This document shows, piece by piece, positions 20,969 through 35,424 of a DNA stretch of 64,000 bases. Under the pieces are notes generated by a model that was given only the letters and a program-made list of their open reading frames with translations, had not been told where the DNA came from and ran no database searches. Each line of letters starts with the position of its first letter. Within the stretch, counting starts at the first letter, position 1. A program made the translations under genes and the position numbers. Origin of the DNA: a virus; IMG/VR virus record IMGVR_UViG_3300026532_000001; one strand, 5' to 3'.

Positions 20969-21109
20969 ATGCTAGTTAATATACTTTGGATAGTATTTAC
21001 AGTTTGTCTGCTGCTCACATTCGTTGCGGTAGTTATGGCGAGATATAAGCAGAAGGAAGAGGAGACGCCTGGACTGGATAGAGTGCTGTTTAGAAGAAGG
21101 AGAAGATGA
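20969..21109 (+). CDS. small single-pass membrane protein
   Basis: MLVNILWIVFTVCLLLTFVAVVMARYK, followed by a basic tail. Confidence 0.4.
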   Translation: MLVNILWIVFTVCLLLTFVAVVMARYKQKEEETPGLDRVLFRRRRR

Positions 21110-21235
21110 TGAACAATAGAGAGATGTACGGATATACGGATATTATCATCAGCAATACTTGTGGCTACTTGCGTCTGTCTGCAAGTTATGCTACTATTCT
21201 AGATAGTAACGGTCAATCAAGAAAGGATCGAGGCC

Positions 21236-21436
21236 ATGATCAACATGCAGGAACGGTTCTTTACGCCAGAGCAGATTGCAGAAACGCTGCAAGTCTCAGA
21301 AGACACAATCATGCGTCTCTTGAGAGAGAAGATGCTCAAAGGAACCAAAGTCAGGAATCAGTGGCGCATCAAAGAGAGCGACCTGGAGAAGTTCCTGGAA
21401 GAAAACAGCAATATCCAAGAGGAACAGGACAAATAA
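21236..21436 (+). CDS. excisionase-family HTH protein
   Basis: FFTPEQIAETLQVSEDTIMRLLREKMLKGTKVRNQWRI. Confidence 0.6.
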   Translation: MINMQERFFTPEQIAETLQVSEDTIMRLLREKMLKGTKVRNQWRIKESDLEKFLEENSNIQEEQDK

Positions 21437-21624
21437 ATAAAGCCAGCGTATGCTGGCAGACAACAATTGAAAATTTTGTAGCATTCAGGTCATCAGCTCT
21501 GCTGTGGAAGGTTAAAGCTAATGACCCTAGGATTCGCTACCCTGTTTTTATAATACATAACCTTGCAAGAAAACGCAAGGTCTTGTATAGCAGAACATGG
21601 GTAGACGATAGAAAGTGTGTACCC

Positions 21625-22383
21625 ATGGAAGATGACAATTCAAGGATAATCCTCCTTAATCGCGGACAGGAAGTTATTGTAGACGAAAAATGGTTTAGAG
21701 AACTAAATCAACGCAGATGGCACATTCGCGATGGCTATGCAGCAGCAAATATTGACGGCGAGCGGACTTACATGCATCGTCACATCCTTCCTCCGCCAAA
21801 AGGCTACCTCGTTGACCATATCAACAGAAACAGGCTCGATAATCGCGAAGCAAATCTTCGGATAGTTACACATGTGCAAAATGCTCAAAACAGAGCATAC
21901 CACAAGAATAATAAAACTGGCTATAAGGGCGTGTTTTTCCATGAAAACACGCAAATATATACTGCTGCGATACGCCAAGGTGGCAAGCTCCGTTATCTTG
22001 GTCAATTTAATACCGCGATAGAAGCAGCAATAGCATACAATAAAGCGGCTATCGAAATTTGCGGAGAATATGCTTGGACCAATCCAATAGATGAAGCAGC
22101 GCCTTTGTTCACACAGCCCCCTGTAAGCACCTATACATCTTGCGATCCATGGGAATGCAAAAATGATGGTAGCTACAGTATGACCATAGGAAGTGCATAT
22201 GCTGATATATGCCCGTATATCTCCAGATCCAAGACATACTATCGGGCAACCGTGCAAGGCCCCAACACTCCTCGACTGCAAGAGAGTCTCTTTATTACTA
22301 TTGATGAGGCAAAGGGATGGTGTGAGCAGTGGATACACCACTTCGATGAATACCAACAACTCAAAAAAGCAGCAGAGCGATAG
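21625..22383 (+). CDS. free-standing HNH-AP2 homing endonuclease
   Basis: HRHIL...VDHINRNRLDNREANLRIVTHVQN (HNH_3 type), then AP2-like GYKGVFFHENTQIYTAAIRQGGKLRYLGQFNTAIEAAIAYNKAA. Start placed at MEDDNSR. Confidence 0.8.
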   Translation: MEDDNSRIILLNRGQEVIVDEKWFRELNQRRWHIRDGYAAANIDGERTYMHRHILPPPKGYLVDHINRNRLDNREANLRIVTHVQNAQNRAYHKNNKTGYKGVFFHENTQIYTAAIRQGGKLRYLGQFNTAIEAAIAYNKAAIEICGEYAWTNPIDEAAPLFTQPPVSTYTSCDPWECKNDGSYSMTIGSAYADICPYISRSKTYYRATVQGPNTPRLQESLFITIDEAKGWCEQWIHHFDEYQQLKKAAER

Positions 22384-22403
22384 ATAGAAGAAGGAGTGTG
22401 TCC

Positions 22404-24824
22404 ATGTATACCATCTCCTCTATTATCGATGTGGTAACGGGCCTCGGGTGGTCGGTTATCCCTGTCGGCCTCAACAAAAAGCCTCTGTTCTCTTGGAAGC
22501 AATACCAGCAGGAACGTGCTAGTGTTGAACAGATAAACCAGTGGCAAAAGCAATACAACCCGCCTGCGTGGGCGGTGATCACCGGGTCTATCAGCAACCT
22601 CATCATTCTTGATGGCGATGGGGAACCCGGGAGAAATACATTTGAGTTGCTAGGGCTCGATCCGCATAGGCGGACGGGCTCAGGCGGCTTGCATTGTGAT
22701 TTTGAGCACCCCGGCTGGTTTGTTCCCACTCTTAATAGCAAGTCAAAGATAGAGCTAGGGGAACGCTGGCCGGGGCTCGACATTCGTGGTGACGGTGGCT
22801 ATGCCGTCTTTTGTGGCAAGAACACCAGTGGCGAGTATGTCTGGTTGCGCGCCCCCGGCGAGTTGGATAGTTTAGACATACTACCTGATGACTTGCGTAT
22901 CTTCCTGGGTCTGCTCAATCCACCACAAGAGAAGACATCCCGACCAGTAGCAGATATCGCACTTGAGAGGGCGCTTCGCGATGTCTCCATAACAGGTCGC
23001 GATAATGCTTGCTTCAAGCTGGCTAAGCAACTGCATGATAATAGCTACTCCCAGGTGGAAGCGGAATCCATCTGCATGGAATTTGCTAGACGGGCTCCCA
23101 CCCATAACACTAAGGGCAAAGTTGAGCCATTCACTGAGGCCACCGCACGGGCTAAAGTCGCTTCTGCCTATTCCTATACCAAGCGCGACCCCTGGTCAAG
23201 CACTACTACCTACAGCCAGGAGCATCCTCAAAGTGGGAATGGCAGTAACCCACCAGAGTCTAACATCAATTTAGATAGTCTTCGTACTTACGTTGATGAG
23301 CGCAATACAGAACGCCTAATCGAACGGCATGGTAAGAACCTACGTTATTGCGCAAAGTGGAAAAAATGGCTTGTGTGGGATGGGAGACGGTGGTGTATAT
23401 CTGAAGCTGAGAAGGTTATTAGTCTTGCTAAAGAGACTATTAGGGCTATGTACGTAGAAGCATTAGATATTGACGATGATGAGAGAAAGCGTACTATGCT
23501 AAAGCATATTATGCGTTCTGATAAAATCAGCATGTTTGAAGCAATGGAGAGATCTGCACGTGCTGATTTACTCATATCGCCTGATGACCTGGATAAGAAC
23601 AACATGCTCTTTAACGTGCTAAACGGCACATTAGATCTAGGTACATACACCTTTCGCAAGCATAACCGAGCTGATCTCATCACACGCTTGGCTCCAGTTG
23701 TCTATGACCCTAATGCGACTTGTCCATTATGGACTGCCTTTTTTGATCGGTTCTTCCCAGAGAACCCAGACCTTCAAGCATTCATCCAGCGAATTGCAGG
23801 GTATTGCCTTACTGGTGATACCTCTGAAAAGGCAACCTTCATTGGTCATGGAGGTGGTAATAACGGGAAAAGCACGCTTCTCAACACACTGATGACCATG
23901 ATGGGAGACTATGCCGATCAAATCGCTACTGAGACTCTGATGGTTAAGCGATACGATAAGGCCATAGCCAACGATATAGCAAAGCTAAAAGGCTTGCGTC
24001 TGGTGATTGCCAGCGAGGGCGAAGAAGGCCAGCGACTAGCAGAGTCGAAAATCAAACAGATGTCAGGAGGTAGTGACCACCTCGTTGGTGAATTCAAGTA
24101 TGGAGAGGAATTTACGTTCATCCCTACGCACAAGATTTTTCTTGGCACTAACCACCTACCCCAAATACGAGGAACTGACCCAGCTATCTGGAATCGCTTG
24201 AAGCTCATCCCCTTTGCTGAGACAATCGACCCTAGCGAGGCAGATCTCCACTATATCGATAAGCTGAAAGCCGAGCTGTCAGGTATTCTTAACTGGGCTT
24301 TAGCTGGTAACAAGAACTGGAGAGCTCAGGGAATCGGGAGGAATCCCGATGTTGAGAAGTCAACCGCATCTCATAGAGCTGAGATGGACATTCTCAGACA
24401 TTTTCTAGAGGATCGCTGCGTCATCAAAAAGAATTGCCGTGTTGCCATAAGTGAACTGTATAAGGCATATGTGGAATGGTGTGATAAGAATACCGAGATT
24501 GCGTTTAATACACGACGGTTTCGCGCCGCTTTGCTTGAGCGGGGTTTTACACAGGATAAGGATGATAAAGAGCGTTTTTGGAGAGGGATTGGTCTCCTTG
24601 ATTCTGACAAAACTGACAATCCTGACACGAATTCAACAAAAGTCCCTTACGTAAAAAACGTTGAAAATAGTTTTAGTAAAACTCAGTCAGATTTGTCAGA
24701 AACGTCAGGAAAATCTGATAGATCTGCAGCTCCTGATCGTGCCTGCCTTCATTGCGGTACTAGAAACTGGCAGTGGGATAGCTTGCTAGAACGCTATACA
24801 TGTGGAAGTTGCAATCACGGATGA
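22404..24824 (+). CDS. bifunctional primase-polymerase / D5-N / SF3 (P4-type) helicase
   Basis: Prim-Pol N-terminus (VIPVGLNKKPLFSWKQYQ, LDIRGDGGYAV), D5_N-like RYCAKWKKWLVWDGRRW, Walker A GHGGGNNGKSTL, and a C-terminal Cys4 zinc ribbon. Confidence 0.85.
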   Translation: MYTISSIIDVVTGLGWSVIPVGLNKKPLFSWKQYQQERASVEQINQWQKQYNPPAWAVITGSISNLIILDGDGEPGRNTFELLGLDPHRRTGSGGLHCDFEHPGWFVPTLNSKSKIELGERWPGLDIRGDGGYAVFCGKNTSGEYVWLRAPGELDSLDILPDDLRIFLGLLNPPQEKTSRPVADIALERALRDVSITGRDNACFKLAKQLHDNSYSQVEAESICMEFARRAPTHNTKGKVEPFTEATARAKVASAYSYTKRDPWSSTTTYSQEHPQSGNGSNPPESNINLDSLRTYVDERNTERLIERHGKNLRYCAKWKKWLVWDGRRWCISEAEKVISLAKETIRAMYVEALDIDDDERKRTMLKHIMRSDKISMFEAMERSARADLLISPDDLDKNNMLFNVLNGTLDLGTYTFRKHNRADLITRLAPVVYDPNATCPLWTAFFDRFFPENPDLQAFIQRIAGYCLTGDTSEKATFIGHGGGNNGKSTLLNTLMTMMGDYADQIATETLMVKRYDKAIANDIAKLKGLRLVIASEGEEGQRLAESKIKQMSGGSDHLVGEFKYGEEFTFIPTHKIFLGTNHLPQIRGTDPAIWNRLKLIPFAETIDPSEADLHYIDKLKAELSGILNWALAGNKNWRAQGIGRNPDVEKSTASHRAEMDILRHFLEDRCVIKKNCRVAISELYKAYVEWCDKNTEIAFNTRRFRAALLERGFTQDKDDKERFWRGIGLLDSDKTDNPDTNSTKVPYVKNVENSFSKTQSDLSETSGKSDRSAAPDRACLHCGTRNWQWDSLLERYTCGSCNHG

Positions 24825-24884: not shown

Positions 24885-25211
24885 ATGGAACAAAATGGAG
24901 AAAGACTTTACATGGTTGATGGTCAACCAAAAGCTGAAATTGATGTGTACCTCACAGATGAGAGGGAAGCACCGTCTATCAAAGAGTGCCGTCATGCGGT
25001 TCTATGTATCAAAACAAAGGATACAAAAGGGGAAGATACGGATGGGTACGTTGTTTATGATCGGCTTCTCAATAGGATTGTAAACGGTGTTTTTGCTGAA
25101 GACTCTGAAAGTGCTCTGTACGTCGCGAAGCTGTACAACGAAGGACAAGGGAGATTAGATATGGCACCAAATGGATATGCACTTGGATTGATTTATCCAG
25201 AGAAAGAGTAG
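24885..25211 (+). CDS. hypothetical protein
   Basis: 108-aa ORF. Confidence 0.45.
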   Translation: MEQNGERLYMVDGQPKAEIDVYLTDEREAPSIKECRHAVLCIKTKDTKGEDTDGYVVYDRLLNRIVNGVFAEDSESALYVAKLYNEGQGRLDMAPNGYALGLIYPEKE

Positions 25212-25299
25212 CGCGTTCACATAGTGAGATGAGAAAGAAGCAAGGAAGGCGAGATGAGAAAAGTGTGTGTAGATGAGCTGAGAAAGAGCGCGGATTATT

Positions 25300-25734
25300 A
25301 TGATTAGAAAAGCATCTCTTGATGATATAGATGCAGTAAAATGTATTGCAGACGCAAATAGGGACAGTATCGGGTTTGTTCTGCGTCCAGCGCTCATTGA
25401 AGCCATAGAACGAAGCTGGCTCATAATTTCTGAGTATGATGGCGAGATTGTCGGATTCTGCAATTATCGGCATTGCAGAAATGGACGCACGACAATCTAT
25501 GAAATCTGTGTACGAGCAGATATGAGAAGACACGGGATAGGATATCAGCTCATTGAATATCTTATCCTGGAATCATATGAGAAAAACCAAATATACATTC
25601 AATTAAAGTGTACTCTAGAAAATCCTGCAAATGCCTTTTATCAGAGACTAACTTTTCAATTGGAAGGTCGAGATGAAGGAAGGAAGAGACCGCTCAATAT
25701 ATGGCGATTTGTACTAAGAGAGGTACTAGTATGA
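25300..25734 (+). CDS. GNAT-family N-acetyltransferase
   Basis: Motif A ICVRADMRRHGIGYQLIEYL. The size is typical (144 aa). Confidence 0.75.
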   Translation: MIRKASLDDIDAVKCIADANRDSIGFVLRPALIEAIERSWLIISEYDGEIVGFCNYRHCRNGRTTIYEICVRADMRRHGIGYQLIEYLILESYEKNQIYIQLKCTLENPANAFYQRLTFQLEGRDEGRKRPLNIWRFVLREVLV

Positions 25735-26414
25735 TCGATCTCATCTACACCAGCGGGAACAACCGAAGATACGCTCAAATGACACTAGATGCAGGATGGC
25801 TTGTCGGCATGAGATCAGACAAACATGCATATGTACCTATATCCTTTATAGATATAGACTATAAGCATCCAGACTTCGAGAGGCATATGAGAGTAGTCCA
25901 GGAACACAACCCGCAGTACGCTATTGTGCCTGATATGAGTGATCAGTATGTGGACAAAGATGACGTGATGCGAGCACTAAAACAAGCAGAGCAGCTCTCG
26001 GCTGTCTTCTGCGGATTAGTATTCGTAGTTCCTAAGCTGCCCAGGCAACTCGCCATGATCCCGCGTGATTTTGCCATAGCATTCTCGGTTCCGACCAGCT
26101 ACGGAGGTGCGATGTTCATGCTGTGGGACAAGGATGTGCAGGACGGTCTCGCAGATCGCCGTATTCATCTGCTCGGTGGCAATCCTCACATACAAATGCA
26201 GTATTGTATGCACCTCTCATCCTTTGCAAATGTTGTTTCTGCCGACGGTAATATGTTTCAGTTCATGAGTGGTGTGCAGAAGTATTGGCAGCATGGATCA
26301 TGGAAGAAACACCCAAGAGCAGGGAAAGGCGACAAGGAAGTAACACATGAATGTATACAGTGGTCTTTGCAAAATGTTAGTGAAGCGTGGAACGAAGCAA
26401 GGAAGGCGAGATAG
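25731..26414 (+). CDS. hypothetical protein (between the GNAT and the C5-MTase)
   Basis: ATGA overlap with the GNAT stop; 227 aa. No motif I can assign. Confidence 0.5.
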   Translation: MIDLIYTSGNNRRYAQMTLDAGWLVGMRSDKHAYVPISFIDIDYKHPDFERHMRVVQEHNPQYAIVPDMSDQYVDKDDVMRALKQAEQLSAVFCGLVFVVPKLPRQLAMIPRDFAIAFSVPTSYGGAMFMLWDKDVQDGLADRRIHLLGGNPHIQMQYCMHLSSFANVVSADGNMFQFMSGVQKYWQHGSWKKHPRAGKGDKEVTHECIQWSLQNVSEAWNEARKAR

Positions 26415-27406
26415 TGAGTTACGCATACTACAATGATATAGATGCATTTTGTTGTAAAGTACTCAGGAAGAACATTGCACTAGGGAATTTGCCAGGAGGC
26501 AAAGTTGATGAAAGAGACATCAGAGACGTTAAAGCAGCAGACTTTATGGGATATCAGCATGTCCATTTGTTCGCAGGAATCGGAGCCTTTGCTCTTGGGA
26601 TGCGATGGGCAGGGTATCCAAGCAGCATCAGAACCTTTACGGGAGGTTTTCCCTGCCAAGATGTGTCTAATGCAGGGAAACGAGCGGGAATTGAAGGAGA
26701 GCATAGCGGACTCTGGAAAGAGATGTGCCGTCTCATTCAGGAAGCGATGGATAGCGGCATGGGACCGGATATCATCATCTTGGAAAACGTCTCAGCTCTT
26801 ATTCACAGGGGACTATCAACAGTACTCGGGGATTTGGCCGAAATCGGGATGGATGCAAGATGGTTCTGTCTACGAGCTTCAGATGTCGGAGCGCCCCACC
26901 AGCGAGAGCGAATATTCATTGTGGCCCACTCCGAGAGCAGAGAAGATCGGCGGGTACTCGAGCCCGGACTATCGGCCAACCTTAGCGCAGAAAGTCCAGA
27001 TGTGGCCGACGCCCGCAGCACAGGACGGCAAGAATGCAACGTGTCCGCCATCGCAGGCAGACAGGGACACATTGCCGGGCTCAATGTGGAGGACCCCACA
27101 GGCGGACGAAAACGGCAGCATCAAGCCACCAGAGGAGAGAAAGGGACACAATCTCTCAATCTCCAATCAAGTCCAAGGCAACTTGAACCCGGAGTGGGTC
27201 GAAATGCTGCAAGGTTTTCCAGTGGGCTACACGGACATCAGTGGCCCGCAGGTCCAGGGGAGTCACAGCATGAATGGGAGCCTCCAAGAACCGTTGTTGG
27301 CAAGCAACCCGATAGGGCAAAGCGCTTAAAGGCGTTGGGAAATGCAATAGTGCCGCAATGTGTGCAATATGTTGTAGAGCACATACTAGCGAACATGGGG
27401 AAATGA
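26387..27406 (+). CDS. DNA (cytosine-5)-methyltransferase
   Basis: Frame A motifs: FAGIGAF (26570-26584), GGFPCQDVSNAGKR (PCQ 26651-26659), ENV (26783-26791), QRERIFIVA (26900-26926), and LGNAIVPQ (27338-27358). Confidence 0.8.
   Translation: MERSKEGEIVSYAYYNDIDAFCCKVLRKNIALGNLPGGKVDERDIRDVKAADFMGYQHVHLFAGIGAFALGMRWAGYPSSIRTFTGGFPCQDVSNAGKRAGIEGEHSGLWKEMCRLIQEAMDSGMGPDIIILENVSALIHRGLSTVLGDLAEIGMDARWFCLRASDVGAPHQRERIFIVAHSESREDRRVLEPGLSANLSAESPDVADARSTGRQECNVSAIAGRQGHIAGLNVEDPTGGRKRQHQATRGEKGTQSLNLQSSPRQLEPGVGRNAARFSSGLHGHQWPAGPGESQHEWEPPRTVVGKQPDRAKRLKALGNAIVPQCVQYVVEHILANMGK
26505..27329 (+). CDS. candidate overlapping +1-frame ORF inside the MTase gene, carrying MTase TRD/motif-IX-like sequence
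   Basis: 274 codons are open in frame B. Contains SGIWPKSGWMQDGSVYEL; LWPTP (26919-26933), MWPTP and MWRTP; and NPEWVEMLQGFPVGYTD (27186-27236). Expression is unproven. Confidence 0.3.
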   Translation: MMKETSETLKQQTLWDISMSICSQESEPLLLGCDGQGIQAASEPLREVFPAKMCLMQGNERELKESIADSGKRCAVSFRKRWIAAWDRISSSWKTSQLLFTGDYQQYSGIWPKSGWMQDGSVYELQMSERPTSESEYSLWPTPRAEKIGGYSSPDYRPTLAQKVQMWPTPAAQDGKNATCPPSQADRDTLPGSMWRTPQADENGSIKPPEERKGHNLSISNQVQGNLNPEWVEMLQGFPVGYTDISGPQVQGSHSMNGSLQEPLLASNPIGQSA

Positions 27407-27407
27407 A

Positions 27408-27650
27408 ATGCTACAAGTAGAACAAAATGTACCAAGTGAATATAGTACATTGTACAATAATTATGTAGCAGCGTTGAAAGACAAGCTAGAGTACATCATG
27501 TGGGTAGTACTCGATAGAGGTCACAAGACAATGATAGTTGAGAAAGAGAAGCACCAGAGAATGATAGAGCAGTTATTGAGAAGTGGTGATGTGCAGCGTG
27601 TGAAGGTGGCAGAAGAGGTGATGAGAAGGAGTATAGGAACATGGGAATAA
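27408..27650 (+). CDS. hypothetical protein
   Basis: 80-aa ORF, tightly packed. Confidence 0.45.
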   Translation: MLQVEQNVPSEYSTLYNNYVAALKDKLEYIMWVVLDRGHKTMIVEKEKHQRMIEQLLRSGDVQRVKVAEEVMRRSIGTWE

Positions 27651-27889
27651 ATGAGTTCGAAAAGCTCATCTCGCAAGCAGGCCTCAACCTGCTCTCGAAA
27701 TACGCACCTCGGTTCGTGGTGTCGCTCCGGGTACCTCAGCAAATTGGCACCCGCTACCTGTGTGAGACGATCAGTTACGCGCCTGCTGAATTTGCCATGC
27801 TTACACCAGAACAGGCAAAGCAGCAAATTGCAGCATGCAGGGCAAAGCTTGAGCGTGCTGCGAAGACGAAACGGGGGATGCTGAGATGA
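27641..27889 (+). CDS. hypothetical protein
   Basis: 82-aa ORF overlapping its neighbours. Confidence 0.45.
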   Translation: MGINEFEKLISQAGLNLLSKYAPRFVVSLRVPQQIGTRYLCETISYAPAEFAMLTPEQAKQQIAACRAKLERAAKTKRGMLR

Positions 27890-28092
27890 ACAATGAGCTC
27901 ATAAGAGAGGTCATCACTAGAAACGACAATAGTAACGTTCTTGCAACAATGGATAGAATTGAGTCAGAAGGATGGAAATTTGTAAAAGAGGAGAAAGTGC
28001 ATGGACAGGATGATGTAACACAGCCAAACGGTTTTGTTTTCACATCTTATGTAAAGTTGTGTTTTACGAAAAGAGGCAATAGTGAAATGTAA
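27886..28092 (+). CDS. hypothetical protein
   Basis: 68 aa; ATGA overlap. Confidence 0.45.
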   Translation: MNNELIREVITRNDNSNVLATMDRIESEGWKFVKEEKVHGQDDVTQPNGFVFTSYVKLCFTKRGNSEM

Positions 28093-28363
28093 CCACAAGA
28101 ATGTGCTGATAACAGAGCACATCTTGAGTAGATATACCTACACCATACTTGATGGACACTTGGCAGGGACGTACTCATCAGGTGCTCCATTGCCTCGGCA
28201 GTTCAATGTCAGTTGCCAGGACTGCGGTCTCAATAAGACATACCGCTATGAACCTGGCGAGTTCGGGCCTCATTCTAGCCCTGGGTGGCTGTACGACTGC
28301 ATAGAGCAAGTGGTGTGCAAAAATTGGAGATTGCAACCAGCACCGGAAAGGAGGAAGGCATGA
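28082..28363 (+). CDS. hypothetical Cys-containing protein
   Basis: 93 aa; GTG start. Confidence 0.4.
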   Translation: MKCNHKNVLITEHILSRYTYTILDGHLAGTYSSGAPLPRQFNVSCQDCGLNKTYRYEPGEFGPHSSPGWLYDCIEQVVCKNWRLQPAPERRKA

Positions 28364-28488
28364 ACGAATACCAGCAACGAGCACTCAAGCATCATTGTCG
28401 CTTGGCAATTGAAACAGCGCATCCAAGATTTGGATACAAGAAAGGCACATATAGTATAGTTCTGACAATAAACTCAGGATATGAGTGA
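28360..28488 (+). CDS. small ORF ending at an in-frame TGA that is contiguous in frame with 28534..28791
   Basis: ATGA overlap with the upstream gene and a GGAGGAAGG SD. The same reading frame stays open after TGA 28486-28488. Confidence 0.35.
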   Translation: MNEYQQRALKHHCRLAIETAHPRFGYKKGTYSIVLTINSGYE

Positions 28489-28533
28489 ATAGAAGAAGGA
28501 TATGGAGGACCAGTTTGGCACTCCTCAGCGGCT

Positions 28534-28791
28534 ATGGCACCCGGATATGTGCCTAATGAACAGTTCTTACAGCATGCAGCTCTTGACGCTCTACAGGGAA
28601 TTGGCAATAAAGCGTTAGGAGAGTGGCATGAGTGGACAGGGACGTACTACCACATCAGAAGACGGCTATCGAAAGACGAGCAAAAGAAAGTAGGCGACAT
28701 GGTAGACGTGCGAGGTACAGATGAAGGCATCAGGAGAGCAGAAGCTGTACAGCGGTTTCTGCCTTCATATATGAGAGGGAGGATTGAATGA
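28534..28791 (+). CDS. hypothetical protein (may begin upstream by readthrough)
   Basis: 85 aa from the first ATG, with no SD. The in-frame upstream codons read IEEGYGGPVWHSSAA. Confidence 0.4.
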   Translation: MAPGYVPNEQFLQHAALDALQGIGNKALGEWHEWTGTYYHIRRRLSKDEQKKVGDMVDVRGTDEGIRRAEAVQRFLPSYMRGRIE

Positions 28792-29013
28792 ATGAATGAA
28801 GGAGAAAAGCTGCTCACCTTCAAAGAAGCGTACAAGTACCTCAGGGTGAGCAGATCAACACTCATACGCTTTATGAAGCGGGGTGATATAGCATATCACA
28901 AAGTGGGGCATAGCCTACGCTTCTATAAAAAAGATCTGAGGGAGGTAGTAAAGGCAGTGGATGTAAATGGTATGGGAAATCAGGTGGAACCGATTGACAC
29001 TGAGGGGGACTGA
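28792..29013 (+). CDS. excisionase-family HTH protein
   Basis: LLTFKEAYKYLRVSRSTLIRFMKRGDIAYHKVGHSLRFYKKDL. Lies immediately upstream of the integrase. Confidence 0.65.
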   Translation: MNEGEKLLTFKEAYKYLRVSRSTLIRFMKRGDIAYHKVGHSLRFYKKDLREVVKAVDVNGMGNQVEPIDTEGD

Positions 29014-29056: not shown

Positions 29057-29115
29057 AGTATTCGACTAATCATCGTTAGTGCTAATTGAACCAAAGTTCA
29101 AAGCAGGAGAAGAAT

Positions 29116-30099
29116 ATGAGCACGGAAGTTACAAGCATCGTTGAGAGTACACAGCTTGATTTATGGATAATGGGATGGTTGCACGAAAAGGGGACGATAT
29201 CTGGTAGTAAAAAGACATTAAAGGCATATAGGGATACAATTGATAGATTTCGTCTTATGCTAAAACAGGCAAATCTAGACCTTGATAGTATCTCTAGTGA
29301 TGAATATGGGTCTGGTATCACTATGAGGCAAGCTCTAAGGTTAAAGGCTCAAGAGTTCTCTACCTACTCAGAAAGAGGCATACAAGTAAAGCCTGCAACA
29401 GTGGAACAAAGACTTGCGGTTATCAGTAGCTTCTATGAGTATGCTATCAGACAAGAATATCTCTTGATCAATCCGATTAAGATGATAGAACGTCCAAAGG
29501 TGCAAGACTATCAAACATCTCGAGCACTCACGCAGGAGCAAACTATGCAGGGCCTGGAAAGCATTGATCGAGAGACACCTAGAGGTAAGCGTGACTATGC
29601 TATGATTTGTGTCCTTCTCTCTACCGGCCGCCGCGTCTCTGAAGTCGCAAACCTTGAGAGAAAGGATCTGCGTATTGACTCAAGAGGCAATATCACTGTT
29701 ACCTTTCTCTGCAAAGGGAATAAGATACTCACAGATGACCTACCAGAAGACACCTCTAAAGCTGTTCTTGAGTGGCTTCAAGCATACTATGAAGCCGATG
29801 TAAACAAGATCGATCCTCATGCAGCCCTCTGGATTAATCTTTCTCCCAGGAAGCATGGAAGCAAGCTTGATATGCGTAGCTTCTCCAATGTGTGTGAGAA
29901 ATACTTCGGAACTGGCAAAGTTCATGCTATGCGCCATACATGGACTGTCAACATGCTCAAGGAAGGCGCAAATCTACAGCTCATCAGGCAGAAGCTTGGG
30001 CATAGCTCACTAGAAACTACTGGCATCTATGCCGCTTCATTGGAGCAAAACGAAAACCCGTTCGCTGAGAGGATAGCGAAAAGAGCAGGAATTAAGTAG
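29116..30099 (+). CDS. tyrosine recombinase / phage integrase (XerC/D-like)
   Basis: RVSEVANL (Arg), HAMRHTWTVNML (HxxR), and LGHSSLETTGIYA (catalytic Tyr). AGGAGA SD lies before ATG 29116. Confidence 0.9.
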   Translation: MSTEVTSIVESTQLDLWIMGWLHEKGTISGSKKTLKAYRDTIDRFRLMLKQANLDLDSISSDEYGSGITMRQALRLKAQEFSTYSERGIQVKPATVEQRLAVISSFYEYAIRQEYLLINPIKMIERPKVQDYQTSRALTQEQTMQGLESIDRETPRGKRDYAMICVLLSTGRRVSEVANLERKDLRIDSRGNITVTFLCKGNKILTDDLPEDTSKAVLEWLQAYYEADVNKIDPHAALWINLSPRKHGSKLDMRSFSNVCEKYFGTGKVHAMRHTWTVNMLKEGANLQLIRQKLGHSSLETTGIYAASLEQNENPFAERIAKRAGIK

Positions 30100-31609: not shown

Positions 31610-32107
31610 ATGTCAAGAGTTTGTACGATTTGTTCGCACGAAAAACGAGCTGAAATTGAAGCGGCAATCGTCACAGGGGGATCATATCGTCACATAGCGT
31701 CACAATTCGGGGTAGGGTACAAGTCGGTAGAAAGACATGCTACTGAGCATATCCAATCATCAGTCAAGCAGTCTCAAGAGGCAAAAGAAGAGGCTAGAGG
31801 TCTAGACGTTGTAAAACAGCTCAAGGATATAAACACAGTAACACTTGCTATCCTGCAAAAAGCAAAGGATACAAAGGATAAAGAGTGGTTAGCACTTCAA
31901 GCTATCGATAGAGTATGTAAGCAATTAGAGCTACAAGCCAAGCTGTTAAGCAATATAGATGATAATAAAGACGAGACGATTAACCCAAGCTTAATGCCGT
32001 ATGTAACAGAAGAAGAGATGACAACCATTAAGAATGTTGTAGAACGAGCGAAAGAACGAAAAGCGAAAGCAGAAGAGAACATTATACCGATGAGGAAACA
32101 CGCGTGA
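31610..32107 (+). CDS. terminase small subunit (putative)
   Basis: Lies immediately upstream of and overlapping TerL. N-terminal CTICSH plus HTH-like SYRHIASQFGVGYKSVERH. Confidence 0.55.
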   Translation: MSRVCTICSHEKRAEIEAAIVTGGSYRHIASQFGVGYKSVERHATEHIQSSVKQSQEAKEEARGLDVVKQLKDINTVTLAILQKAKDTKDKEWLALQAIDRVCKQLELQAKLLSNIDDNKDETINPSLMPYVTEEEMTTIKNVVERAKERKAKAEENIIPMRKHA

Positions 32108-33621
32108 TTATCACAGAGTCCCTTTTGACTATGATGGAAGCTGAAGAGGCCAGGCGCAACTTCACACTCTTTGTGAAGCATGCCTGGCATGAGCTAGAGC
32201 CAGACACGCCACTGCTGTGGAACTGGCATCTCGACGCGCTCTGCATTCATCTCCAGGCACTCTACACCCGCGAAATCACCCGTCTCCTGATCGGTATAGG
32301 CCCGGGCCACGCAAAATCCACCATTGTCTCTGTGATGTTCCCGGTCTGGTGTTGGGTAAATGATCCCTATTCTCGCTGGCTCTGTGCCTCGCATAGCCTC
32401 GATCTGGCTATTCGTGATAATCGCTATCGTCGTCGGTTGATCGAGTCTGAATGGTTTCAAGAGCGTTACGGGCATCTGTTTAAGTTCGCGCATGATCAGA
32501 GATTGAAGTCCTACTATGAGAACGATAAAAAAGGGTATCATATGGCTTTAGCGGTCCGTGGATCTGGAACTGGAAAAAGAGCATCGCATTTATTGATAGA
32601 TGACGCGCATAATGCGATGGAAGGGGAAGCCGATCAAAAAGCGGTGATAGAGTGGTTTGGCAAGACTTGGATTAGTCGCCTCAATGATCAGCAGCATGGG
32701 CCTATGGTCGTCGTCGGTCAGCGGTTGCGTGCAACTGATTTAATTGGACATCTGCTTGAATTAGGTGGCTGGGAACATCTTTGCCTGCCAGAGGAGTTTG
32801 AACCTGATCGACGGAGTGTGACCAAGATTGGATGGCAAGATCCTCGCACACAAGAGGGAGAATTGCTCTGGCCAGAGAAGTTTTCCAGGGAAGTCCTTGA
32901 TAGTCTGAAGAAATCGATGGGAAGCCTGGATTATGCTGCACAGTTTCAGCAGCGTCCGGTACCTGCTGGCGGCGGACAATTCAAAAAGCAATGGTTCCGG
33001 TACTTTACTGCCGAAAATGACTATTACCAGCTAGAAACCGATGCTGGCTTCAAGCGGTTCCTCACAAAAGATTGCTGGCTGTTCATGACTCTCGATCTGG
33101 CTATCTCGACCAAGCAAACCGCGGATTATACCGTGATGTGCACCTGGGCTGTGACTCCTGATCGTGACTTGCTCCTCATAGGCCGACTTCGTGACCGCCT
33201 GGACAACCCTGCTCAGCAGCAGCAGACATCAGTGCTCTACCAACGATATCGCCCCAGCTTCATAAAAATTGAAAGCGTGGCCTATCAGCTTGCTCTTGTG
33301 CAACAACTTCGTAGACAAGGCTTGCCAGTCAAGGAATACAAGCCAGTCAAGGACAAGGTGGCTCGCGCGACAACGGCTGCTGTCTACTACGAGTCAAGCA
33401 AGGTGTTTCATCCCAAACAGGCATCATGGCTCCATGAGTGGGAAGATGAGCTTCTGTTATTCCCTCTGGGTGCTCATGATGACCAGGTAGATAATGCATC
33501 AATGGCTTGTGAAGAGCTGGGCATGCCTCGCAGTGTAGGTGGTATGGTCGTCGACAAACCAACTGAAGAAGAGAAAGAGCGACAGCAGTATGAAGAGGAG
33601 GATGAATTAGCATGGCGATGA
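32104..33621 (+). CDS. terminase large subunit
   Basis: ATPase motifs GIGPGHAKST and HLLIDDAHN. C-terminal nuclease motifs include LDLAIS...ADYTV and GAHDDQVDNASMA. Confidence 0.9.
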   Translation: MIITESLLTMMEAEEARRNFTLFVKHAWHELEPDTPLLWNWHLDALCIHLQALYTREITRLLIGIGPGHAKSTIVSVMFPVWCWVNDPYSRWLCASHSLDLAIRDNRYRRRLIESEWFQERYGHLFKFAHDQRLKSYYENDKKGYHMALAVRGSGTGKRASHLLIDDAHNAMEGEADQKAVIEWFGKTWISRLNDQQHGPMVVVGQRLRATDLIGHLLELGGWEHLCLPEEFEPDRRSVTKIGWQDPRTQEGELLWPEKFSREVLDSLKKSMGSLDYAAQFQQRPVPAGGGQFKKQWFRYFTAENDYYQLETDAGFKRFLTKDCWLFMTLDLAISTKQTADYTVMCTWAVTPDRDLLLIGRLRDRLDNPAQQQQTSVLYQRYRPSFIKIESVAYQLALVQQLRRQGLPVKEYKPVKDKVARATTAAVYYESSKVFHPKQASWLHEWEDELLLFPLGAHDDQVDNASMACEELGMPRSVGGMVVDKPTEEEKERQQYEEEDELAWR

Positions 33622-33909: not shown

Positions 33910-35424
33910 ATGGCGATAAACTTTCCAAACTGGATACGCACAAAGAAGCGGCGTTCCCGTGTAATAGAACGTCCATTCCAAGCGCCTACCTACCCCGCAG
34001 ACTCGCATACCTCAGAGATGTTCGAACGCAACGTGGGCATCATCAATCTGGAAGCCGCAACGAAGCGCAGTGCGAAAGTTCCACAGCCCAGGGGACCCAA
34101 GAACCTCTCCATGGCATGGGATGACACCTCGTTAGGACTGGGTAGTGTTCAGACGCGGGAGGGCTTCCTGGATGACAGGCAGAAGAAGGATACGTACTAT
34201 CAGGTGTACTGCGGGAACCAGTGGGTTTCAGGCTGTGTAGATACCACCGCAGAACGCATGATCTCCGGTGGGTGGGAGACTGTCGAGATTGAGCAAGGGA
34301 AAGGCAATGCTGCCAATGAAGCGAAAGTAAAAGCGTTATTTGACTTTGAAGATGTAGAAGAAGATTTCTTGCAGTTTTTTAACTCAATTGCAACTGATTT
34401 ACTTATTTTTGGTGAAGCCTTCTGCGAAATGGTCTACGGGCCTGATGGTCTTGTGAGAAACTTATATACTATTGACTCTATCACGATGAATACGCAATTT
34501 GACATGCATGGAGTGATCACAGGGTATACCCAACGCTTGGAGAAGAGTACCGATGTTGTGGATTTTGAACCTCGCGAGATTATCCGCTGGTGGCTACCAG
34601 ACCCACGTGCGAAGAAAAAAGCGCTATCCCCTATCGAGAAGCTCAAGGACCCGGTATTCCTGGATCGATCTATGGTTACCTGGGGTGAGAAGTTCTTTAG
34701 GCAAGGTGGCAAGCCGTCCTATTGGGTCGAGATGGGGCCTGACTCCAATGAAGACGATGCCGAACGATACCGTAAGTGGTACTCTGAAAACTATACTGGC
34801 ATACAGAACGCGCATATACCGCCTATCATGTATGGAGGTGGCAAGATCCATGAGTTTGGTACGGGCTCTATTGAGATAGATTTCGATAAGAGTCAGGACA
34901 AGCAGCGGGATAGGGCGCTGGTCGTCTATGGGGTGCCACCTGCTATGCTCGGTATTATTGAAAGCGGCAATATAGGCGGTGGTACGGGTGAGAGTCAGAA
35001 CAAGTCATTTATCTATAATAAAGTCTTCCCATTAGAAAACAAGATACTTGAAAAGCTAAATTATAGAGCAGTCAAAACGGGACTGAATGTAGAAGACTGG
35101 CGGGTCCAAACGCGTCACGCAGATTACCGACAGGATGTAGATATCGCTACTATTGAGGATAAATCAATCAGAAATGGTACTCTCACTATCAACGAAGCTA
35201 GACAAGAACGCGGACGTACCGATGTCCCGGGCGGCGACACACCTATTCTCATCTCTGCTACCACTATCACACCCGTATCTCATTTGGAGAGTCTAGAGCA
35301 AGAACAACAGCAGCAATCCGCTCAGGACGACCAGAATAATCCCGATGATCAACAAGGTGACCAATCGCCACAGAACAACCAACAGCCTCCTCATAAGGAT
35401 AAACAAGAGGAGGCTGAGCAGTGA
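33910..35424 (+). CDS. portal protein
   Basis: 504 aa, follows TerL, with an acidic/Q-rich C-terminus. Confidence 0.8.
   Translation: MAINFPNWIRTKKRRSRVIERPFQAPTYPADSHTSEMFERNVGIINLEAATKRSAKVPQPRGPKNLSMAWDDTSLGLGSVQTREGFLDDRQKKDTYYQVYCGNQWVSGCVDTTAERMISGGWETVEIEQGKGNAANEAKVKALFDFEDVEEDFLQFFNSIATDLLIFGEAFCEMVYGPDGLVRNLYTIDSITMNTQFDMHGVITGYTQRLEKSTDVVDFEPREIIRWWLPDPRAKKKALSPIEKLKDPVFLDRSMVTWGEKFFRQGGKPSYWVEMGPDSNEDDAERYRKWYSENYTGIQNAHIPPIMYGGGKIHEFGTGSIEIDFDKSQDKQRDRALVVYGVPPAMLGIIESGNIGGGTGESQNKSFIYNKVFPLENKILEKLNYRAVKTGLNVEDWRVQTRHADYRQDVDIATIEDKSIRNGTLTINEARQERGRTDVPGGDTPILISATTITPVSHLESLEQEQQQQSAQDDQNNPDDQQGDQSPQNNQQPPHKDKQEEAEQ

Follow-up and report, generated by a model that had tools for sequence, protein, structure and literature searches.

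How can two long reading frames on the same strand of a phage genome both carry motifs of a DNA (cytosine-5) methyltransferase over the same nucleotides? The question is raised by a locus in IMG/VR virus record IMGVR_UViG_3300026532_000001, of which we analysed a stretch of 64,000 nucleotides (nt), hereafter the window. The list of open reading frames (ORFs) gives frame A as 26387..27406 on the plus strand (339 aa, with GTG at its longest start) and frame B, in register A+1, as 26505..27329 on the same strand (274 aa from TTG, with an ATG at 26508). A first, sequence-only reading had drawn attention to these two open frames and their motifs, and every peptide it quoted is found in the ORF list and the sequence. 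Its further observation that the same bases code in both frames is borne out by RIFIVAH in A (26909-26929) and YSLWPTP in B (26913-26933), as well as by LENVSAL in A and WKTSQL in B, which overlap at 26780-26800. Three explanations had been offered: an overlapping pair of catalytic and target-recognition genes, double ribosomal frameshifting, or compensating indels. We conclude that the locus is very probably a phage C5-methyltransferase of two chains, here called alpha (frame A) and beta (frame B), which are translated separately from overlapping frames of one mRNA.

The locus is no accident of assembly, since positions 25008-28829 of the window are 100% identical to an independent 43.6 kb contig in ENA (ERZ27286380:k141_3294363), and a protein identical to that of frame B (P0121) has been recorded from 6 contigs.

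Both frames are under purifying selection on the same bases

The C5-methyltransferase motifs I (FxGxG), IV (PCQ), VI (ENV), VIII (QxRxR) and X (GNxxxxP) all lie in frame A, and Pfam finds its methyltransferase domain PF00145 in frame A only (E=6.5e-31, alpha residues 78-188). Two parts of the locus are decisive for the second frame. In the dual-coding core (26760..26933, plus strand), frame A reads GPDIIILENV...QRERIFIVAH, that is, motifs VI-VIII, while frame B reads WDRISSSWKTSQ...SGIWPKSGWMQDGSVYEL...EYSLWPTP. In the middle region that follows (26930..27238, plus strand), frame A is an unconserved linker of 103 residues rich in G, S, R and A, and frame B encodes recognition modules and a motif IX-like segment.

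Selection on frame B within the core was assessed with 18 loci of less than 55% mutual identity, in which synonymous frame-A codons were permuted within each gene, so that the frame-A protein and its codon usage were kept. Over alpha residues 126-181 (ENV to motif VIII), the conservation of frame B reached a BLOSUM62 score of 0.73 against a null value of 0.12 (z=14.8), and frame-B stops numbered 0.00 per sequence as against 1.82 expected (z=-8.3). A control stretch (alpha residues 58-123) gave z=0.6, with the number of stops as expected. Frame B is thus no shadow of frame A: it is conserved and stop-free in the homologues, where the sequence-only reading had suggested looking, beyond anything that the constraint on frame A accounts for. 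In the window alone, the 141 codons of frame B at 26508..26932 contained a mean of 5.4 stops under frame-A permutation and were open in 0 of 5000 permutations, so that the openness of this frame is not due to chance.

The converse holds in the middle region. Frame A is stop-free through the B-coded middle (mean 105 codons) in all 112 of 112 loci, where 7.6 would be expected; permuting synonymous frame-B codons gave 2.98 stops and P(open)=0.068 per locus, and over 17 non-redundant loci the summed log10 P was -25. The third frame contains 7.6 stops on average in the same region and is never open, and among 105-codon windows taken from the neighbouring genes at these loci just 5.9% have an open -1 frame. 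The middle part of frame A had been described as off-frame sequence by the sequence-only reading. This is confirmed as far as its character goes, but the stretch is stop-free and most likely translated as a linker.

Identities to the homologous locus L004 follow the same division. They are 76% (A) and 52% (B) in the N-terminal segment, 83% and 52% in the overlap, 32% and 57% in the middle, and 75% for the C-terminal part of A as against 45% for the tail of B. Both frames are therefore under purifying selection on the same bases, and frame A is kept open over the B-coded middle; of the nested stretch of ~820 nt, ~170 nt are selected in both frames. Since motifs VI-VIII and the frame-B module occupy the same bases, one polypeptide cannot hold both, and two translation products are required. 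The selection for an open yet unconserved frame A in turn indicates that ribosomes read alpha through to motif X.

Composition of the predicted alpha and beta chains

The alpha gene (26414..27406, plus strand) would encode 330 aa comprising a large catalytic domain, a linker and motif X, and matches phrog_363 of PHROGs over its full length (E=1.2e-65). Its start is most likely GTG 26414, because homologues begin with MSYAYYN at this point, the GTG shares its first base with the TAG that ends the upstream DUF6610 gene (taGTG), and a putative Shine-Dalgarno-like sequence, AAGGAAGG (26399..26406, plus strand), lies 7 nt upstream. Homologues of frame A show 40-62% identity over 95-97% of its 339 residues. 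They share the N-terminal part as far as motif VIII and the C-terminal part (WPAGPGE...RLKALGNAIVPQ), and their middles are unalignable, variable in length and of low complexity.

The order of motifs in alpha is unusual, as the sequence-only reading had remarked. A motif II-like segment (AYYNDIDAFCCKVLRKNI) and a motif III-like segment (RDIRDV) at 26423..26530 lie 5' of motif I (HLFAGIGAF, 26564-26590), which is followed by motif IV with the putative catalytic cysteine (GGFPCQDVS, 26642-26668), the last two being assigned by sequence and by alignment with M.HhaI. This alignment spans motifs I, IV-VIII and X, and the distance from the motif I helix to motif IV is just ~8 residues in alpha, compared to 43 in M.HhaI. 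AYYNDIDAFCCKVLRKNI is similar to VYSNEWDKYAQEVYEMNF of M.HhaI, and RDIRDV to its GDITQV; the TIGR00675 profile is aligned from position 25 to 167 with alpha residues 5-179. With II/III-like segments apparently at residues 4-39 and motif I at residues 51-59, the canonical I-II-III-IV order is not followed, and the AlphaFold2 (AF2) model predicts a strand-helix-strand unit ahead of the motif I strand. The II-III-I-IV order in the clade of the window thus looks like a local circular permutation of the half that binds S-adenosylmethionine (AdoMet). More distant members of the family have an insertion between motifs I and IV, consistent with the canonical order.

The C-terminal part of alpha (27239..27403) contains a clade-specific segment, QWPAGPGESQHEWEPPR (27239-27289), and motif X, RLKALGNAIVPQ (27323-27358), both on the plus strand, and shows invariant columns from W286 to Q324 in the homologue alignment. 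Identity to relatives here is 75-80% in frame A versus 34-48% in the tail of beta. The TAA stop of frame B (27327-27329) lies inside the motif X codons and is made by the codons for R-L-K in alpha (cgc tta aag). In the AF2 model of alpha, built from an alignment of 67 sequences, the predicted local distance difference test score (pLDDT) exceeds 90 for residues 1-175 and is 81-93 for residues 300-330, with a helix at 301-329. Residues 185-273 fall below 50 (~35 for the linker) and correspond exactly to the B-coded middle. The best Foldseek match of the model is M.HhaI (E=1.2e-9), and M.HaeIII is matched as well (E ~1e-9). According to both the homologue alignment and the model, alpha is devoid of a structured or conserved small domain.

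The beta gene (26508..27329, plus strand, 273 aa, frame +1) is wholly nested in alpha and encodes target-recognition modules and a motif IX-like segment. We infer that its translation starts at ATG 26508, which stands 8 nt behind a Shine-Dalgarno sequence, AGGAGG (26494-26499, plus strand), located inside the alpha codons for P-G-G (cca gga ggc). The combination of AGGAGG and ATG is present at the equivalent place in loci L004 and L084, and the beta proteins P0122, P0124 and P0150 likewise begin with M(K/S)ETS. A scan of 25200-27800 for promoters and terminators returned nothing above the shuffled expectation, and hence no sign of an internal promoter for beta. Three (L/M)W(P/R)TP recognition modules are found in beta, among them MWPTP (27000-27014) and MWRTP (27084-27098), followed by the motif IX-like segment LNPEWVEMLQGFPVGYTD (27183-27236), all in frame B on the plus strand. 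When this segment is virtually joined to motif X of alpha, the two are co-linear with positions 269-322 of PF00145 (E=0.0015, 18.5 bits, with a gathering score of 22).

The beta protein is a member of phrog_1008, annotated as 'DNA methyltransferase' (E=2.6e-23), and Pfam and NCBIfam scans gave no model for it. Its AF2 model has a mean pLDDT of 60 and a predicted template modelling score (pTM) of 0.29. Residues 1-66, an unconserved and predicted disordered N-terminus, score below 50, five strands are predicted at residues 81-123 with pLDDT 75-80, and residues 231-240, most of the motif IX-like segment, average 84, with 72 and 66 for the neighbouring blocks. A Foldseek search of this low-confidence model against the PDB returned no match at E<=0.001, and searches of PDB sequences with the beta sequence and the beta profile returned nothing relevant.

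We propose that alpha would supply the whole large domain, with AdoMet binding (the II/III-like segments and motif I), the catalytic cysteine (motif IV) and motifs VI, VIII and X, and that a stop-free, sequence-unconstrained linker of ~100 residues would take the position held by the small domain in a single-chain enzyme. Beta would supply that small domain, consisting of a strand-rich module encoded atop motifs VI-VIII, the three (L/M)W(P/R)TP modules and the motif IX-like segment. By analogy with the two-chain enzyme M.EcoHK31I, discussed below, the chains would associate non-covalently to form the active enzyme, and methylation of the phage DNA at a specific site would presumably allow escape from host restriction. 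Heterodimer assembly, enzymatic activity and biological role are what we infer for the pair.

Layout across the family and known two-chain enzymes

To survey the arrangement, the window gene was cut into three tblastn queries: N (frame A to motif VIII), B (frame B, WDRISSSW..GYTDI) and C (the C-terminus of frame A). Among 164 viral and metagenomic loci, N, B and C matched in frames f, f+1 and f in 103, and in f and f+1 with no detectable C in a further 25. An independent set of 80 loci from bacterial assemblies, with one genome per species and Nostoc isolates among them, gave f, f+1, f in 42 and no C in 10. The recognition region was in frame with motifs I-VIII in 0 of the 164 viral and metagenomic loci and in 0 of the 80 genome loci. 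The A-B-A layout is kept at just 30-60% identity, with the B match beginning ~170 nt upstream of the end of the N match. The same arrangement is present in a finished Leptospira interrogans plasmid and in Burkholderia phage BcepC6B, and in both alpha alone is annotated. The nearest genome relative of the window, a Ktedonobacterales metagenome-assembled genome, shares 49% identity; a scan of genome contigs with a single alpha protein as query returned no relative.

Some loci deviate from this pattern. A minority (L001, L092, L175, L218, L219 from Herpetosiphon, and L221) carry the target-recognition domain (TRD), motif IX and motif X in one frame. In L088 and L107 (metagenome contigs) and L226 (a genome contig), N, B and C lie in f, f+2 and f+1, and frame A closes right after motif VIII; these may represent a third layout or sequencing errors. 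Other loci, including L040, L067, L075, L024 and L053, gave no tblastn match to the beta of the window and have a +1 frame that is open for 260-366 codons from the VDERDI position, which points to beta or TRD types that are likewise nested but more divergent.

The beta family itself is large. A profile of 83 beta homologues retrieved 52,404 representatives of clusters defined at 50% identity at E<=1e-3, and 14,987 at E<=1e-30. A Pfam domain is missing in 142 of the best 146 of these representatives. In a motif-pattern scan of the best 146, four carry motif I (one of them also motif IV) without VI and VIII; they look like N-terminal frame-A/frame-B hybrids and are probably the same four that hit PF00145. 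Four others carry motif X at the C-terminus, and a complete single-chain enzyme was found in none of the 146. Among 165 homologues of beta, no Pfam domain was present in the 120 listed, with the exception of P0065. This protein of 260 aa begins in frame A and continues in frame B, with the switch inside the overlap (..LGDLAE|SGWMQDGS..), and shows several extra substitutions relative to the window; it gives the impression of an error-laden version of this gene, and we set this hybrid aside.

Among characterised enzymes the closest parallel is M.EcoHK31I, reportedly from E. coli HK31 with the site YGGCCR and said to have been described by Lee, Kam and Shaw in 1995. Its beta chain is nested in another frame of alpha; alpha holds motifs I-VIII and X, beta holds motif IX, and activity needs both (PMC2836561; PMC3404938). 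Together with M.AquI it forms the exception among characterised C5-methyltransferases, which are otherwise monomeric (PMC3404938). The likeness is drawn from layout and published description; a plasmid search with beta gave no E. coli match. In the window, too, beta (26508..27329) is read in the +1 frame and does not extend beyond alpha (26414..27406) on either side; motif X belongs to alpha and the motif IX-like LNPEWVEMLQGFPVGYTD to beta, the latter assigned at the sub-threshold 18.5 bits. The M.EcoHK31I beta chain can do without its first ~42 residues and can be started from alternative internal sites (PMC2836561), which parallels the unconserved, predicted disordered N-terminus of the window beta. 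The two systems differ in that the literature places the predicted TRD of M.EcoHK31I in alpha, whereas in the window the recognition modules are in beta and the corresponding stretch of alpha is an unconserved linker. The window gene also has a phage context with no restriction enzyme gene identified adjoining it, and the II/III-like motifs of its alpha precede motif I.

The sequence-only reading had instead cited M.AquI as its precedent, stating that this enzyme is made from two overlapping ORFs, and M.AquI proves to be the wrong subtype. M.AquI reportedly comes from Synechococcus sp. PCC 7002 and is said to have been described by Karreman and de Waard in 1990. Like the window locus it is a C5-methyltransferase of alpha and beta chains; it is split within the variable region, with motifs I-VIII in alpha and IX and X in beta (PMC3404938). 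In the window, in contrast, frame A runs on to motif X, and beta is fully nested and stops at 27329. By its predicted topology, the locus is a nested heterodimeric C5-methyltransferase of the EcoHK31I type and falls outside the definition of the AquI type.

A sensitive blastn search of phage genomes returned no close relative of the window; its only matches, of 113-163 nt, fall in the dual-coding core, precisely at the A/B overlap, where 47 mycobacteriophage records match. In the listed Cluster O (Corndog-like) genomes, the matching position is occupied by two overlapping genes annotated 'DNA methylase'. Homology between Corndog gp7/gp6 and the window extends to both frames of one and the same stretch of bases (73.5% nucleotide identity over 113 nt). 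gp7 ends ...APHRRQRIFVVAHARRR*, resembling frame A, and gp6, in the +1 frame, reads ...FSGTWPTSGSMRNGKLYQRPTRERPTDANEYSLLPTP..., resembling frame B; the recognition ORF thus overlaps the end of the catalytic ORF, and gp6 belongs to phrog_1008. Corndog differs in that frame A stops just past motif VIII and gp6 carries the TRD, IX and X in one frame, which is the M.AquI layout. Cresawn et al. 2015 noted coding potential in both frames of the overlap, left undecided whether two products, a frameshift, a ribosome hop or an intron are involved, and found no splicing by reverse transcription polymerase chain reaction (PMC4351075). In the window, the conserved frame changes from B to A over no more than 2 nt: motif IX ends at 27236 and WPAGPGE.. 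begins at 27239. The 5' boundary is different, in that both frames are conserved there over a shared ~170 nt. The abrupt switch from B to A fits an origin from an AquI/Corndog-type gene through a 1-nt indel after motif IX.

A further comparison is offered by Streptococcus phage MM1 (L165, DQ113772), in which orf13/orf14 are annotated 'C5 methyltransferase alpha/beta subunit'. Here, a +1 ORF (1349-1774) is nested over motifs IV-VIII of alpha (1198-2355), and its sequence RWMNWGMMWNGKCL... resembles the strand module of beta. The MM1 alpha, however, is canonical and complete, having a TRD, IX and X of its own in the same frame, and the nested ORF, of 141 aa, has neither WPTP modules nor motif IX. 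Its frame-B WGMMWNG is the +1 reading of LGYDVEW in alpha with AT-rich codons. This nested ORF may be functional, a relic or a shadow.

Within the window, alpha and beta are part of a rightward phage operon. An ORF with HNH_3 endonuclease and AP2 DNA-binding domains (21106-22383, homing-endonuclease-like) lies just upstream of a primase-polymerase/D5 helicase gene (22398-24824). These are followed by a GNAT acetyltransferase gene (25300-25734), which overlaps the start of the DUF6610 gene by 34 nt; the latter (25701-26414; PF20314, E=1.5e-48) is immediately upstream of alpha. Downstream, small ORFs fill the space between alpha/beta and an integrase gene (29086-30099), and terminase (32104-33621) and portal (33910-35424) genes follow.

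Alternatives and wider meaning

An alternative to two separately translated chains is a single chain made through two programmed frameshifts, from A to B (+1) after motif VIII and back from B to A (-1) after motif IX. Cresawn et al. 2015 considered this possible for Corndog (PMC4351075), and the abutment within 2 nt of the end of motif IX in frame B (27236) and the conserved start in frame A (27239) would suit it, as would the spacing in most members, in which motif X (A) follows GFPxxW (B) after ~5 codon-equivalents, like co-linear motifs IX and X. Nevertheless, for ~57 codons before the only site at which a shift could take place, frame B is conserved and free of stops on top of motifs VI-VIII of frame A, and the openness of frame A through the middle in 112 of 112 loci would be needless for a frameshifting ribosome. 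A canonical -1 slippery heptamer occurs between motif IX and the B stop in just 5 of 88 loci, and beta has a strong Shine-Dalgarno sequence and ATG of its own. Double frameshifting, the second option of the sequence-only reading, is on these grounds highly improbable. A more limited recoding, in which alpha is as proposed and beta gains motif X by a -1 shift near 27237, would yield an M.AquI-like TRD-IX-X chain beside or instead of plain beta. The sharp boundary of conservation between B and A is in keeping with this, as is the existence of AquI/Corndog-type relatives (L001, L092, L175, L218, L219, L221; 4 of 146 beta representatives). We consider it improbable all the same, given that the shift signal is not conserved (the same 5 of 88 loci), that selection for an open frame A in the middle shows motif X to be reached by read-through of alpha, and that M.EcoHK31I functions with motif X in alpha.

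Least probable of all is that only alpha functions, with frame B an untranslated shadow, or that the locus is a decaying pseudogene or an assembly error with compensating indels. Some frame-B motifs are indeed +1 readings of frame-A motifs (KTS of ENV, SGxWP of LGDLA), and annotation pipelines mostly call alpha alone. The permutation tests reject a shadow (z=14.8; 0 vs 1.82 stops), the conserved frame in the middle is B and not A, and alpha alone is missing a structured or conserved small domain. Against error or decay stand the identical independent contig and a layout that recurs in more than 180 diverged loci, some of them on finished replicons of isolates (the Leptospira interrogans plasmid is one), and with this the compensating indels of the sequence-only reading fall away. 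Its first option, an overlapping pair of catalytic and TRD genes, is the one supported by the dual-frame selection, the openness of frame A and the family-wide layout.

Several points nonetheless count against the two-chain reading or should be interpreted with caution. The motif IX assignment draws on a Pfam alignment below threshold (18.5 vs 22 bits) and on resemblance to the consensus, and the beta model is of low confidence, with no solved fold matched. The expectation of the sequence-only reading that two open frames would be unlikely by chance stands for frame B (0 of 5000 permutations open) and fails for the middle of frame A in the window alone, where openness over 103 codons is not significant (P(open)=0.45) and becomes decisive across the family alone. 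Neither the gp7 nor the gp6 product of Corndog was detected by mass spectrometry (PMC4351075), the expression and activity of both chains are predicted from sequence and models, and an additional minor frameshift product may exist.

The phenomenon is not categorically new, since M.EcoHK31I (1995) provides a precedent that is 30 years old. What goes beyond the literature searched would be how strongly both frames are selected, how large the unannotated beta family is and what the locus implies for the Corndog question. The locus provides a clean example, with good statistical support, of one set of bases coding for two proteins, and natural alpha/beta pairs of this kind could be useful scaffolds for the engineering of split methyltransferases, as has been done with M.EcoHK31I. 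On the question left in 2015 for Corndog-type genes, two products or recoding, the comparative evidence favours two products.

Gene callers and curated pipelines mostly report one frame, and beta homologues, if called at all, are mostly named 'hypothetical protein'. As the recognition subunit thus goes unannotated, specificity predictions for phage methyltransferases that consider alpha alone will miss it. We tentatively suggest, at somewhat less than even confidence, that the nested or overlapping two-chain layout is not a rarity of M.AquI and M.EcoHK31I, and is instead ancestral and obligatory in a very large clade of phage and bacterial C5-methyltransferases. If this were true, the strand-rich N-terminal module of beta would have arisen by overprinting of motifs VI-VIII of alpha, the 'variable region' of alpha would serve as nothing more than a stop-free tether, and the TRD assigned to the alpha chain of M.EcoHK31I would really reside in beta. 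The enzyme described in most database annotations would then be one without its recognition subunit.

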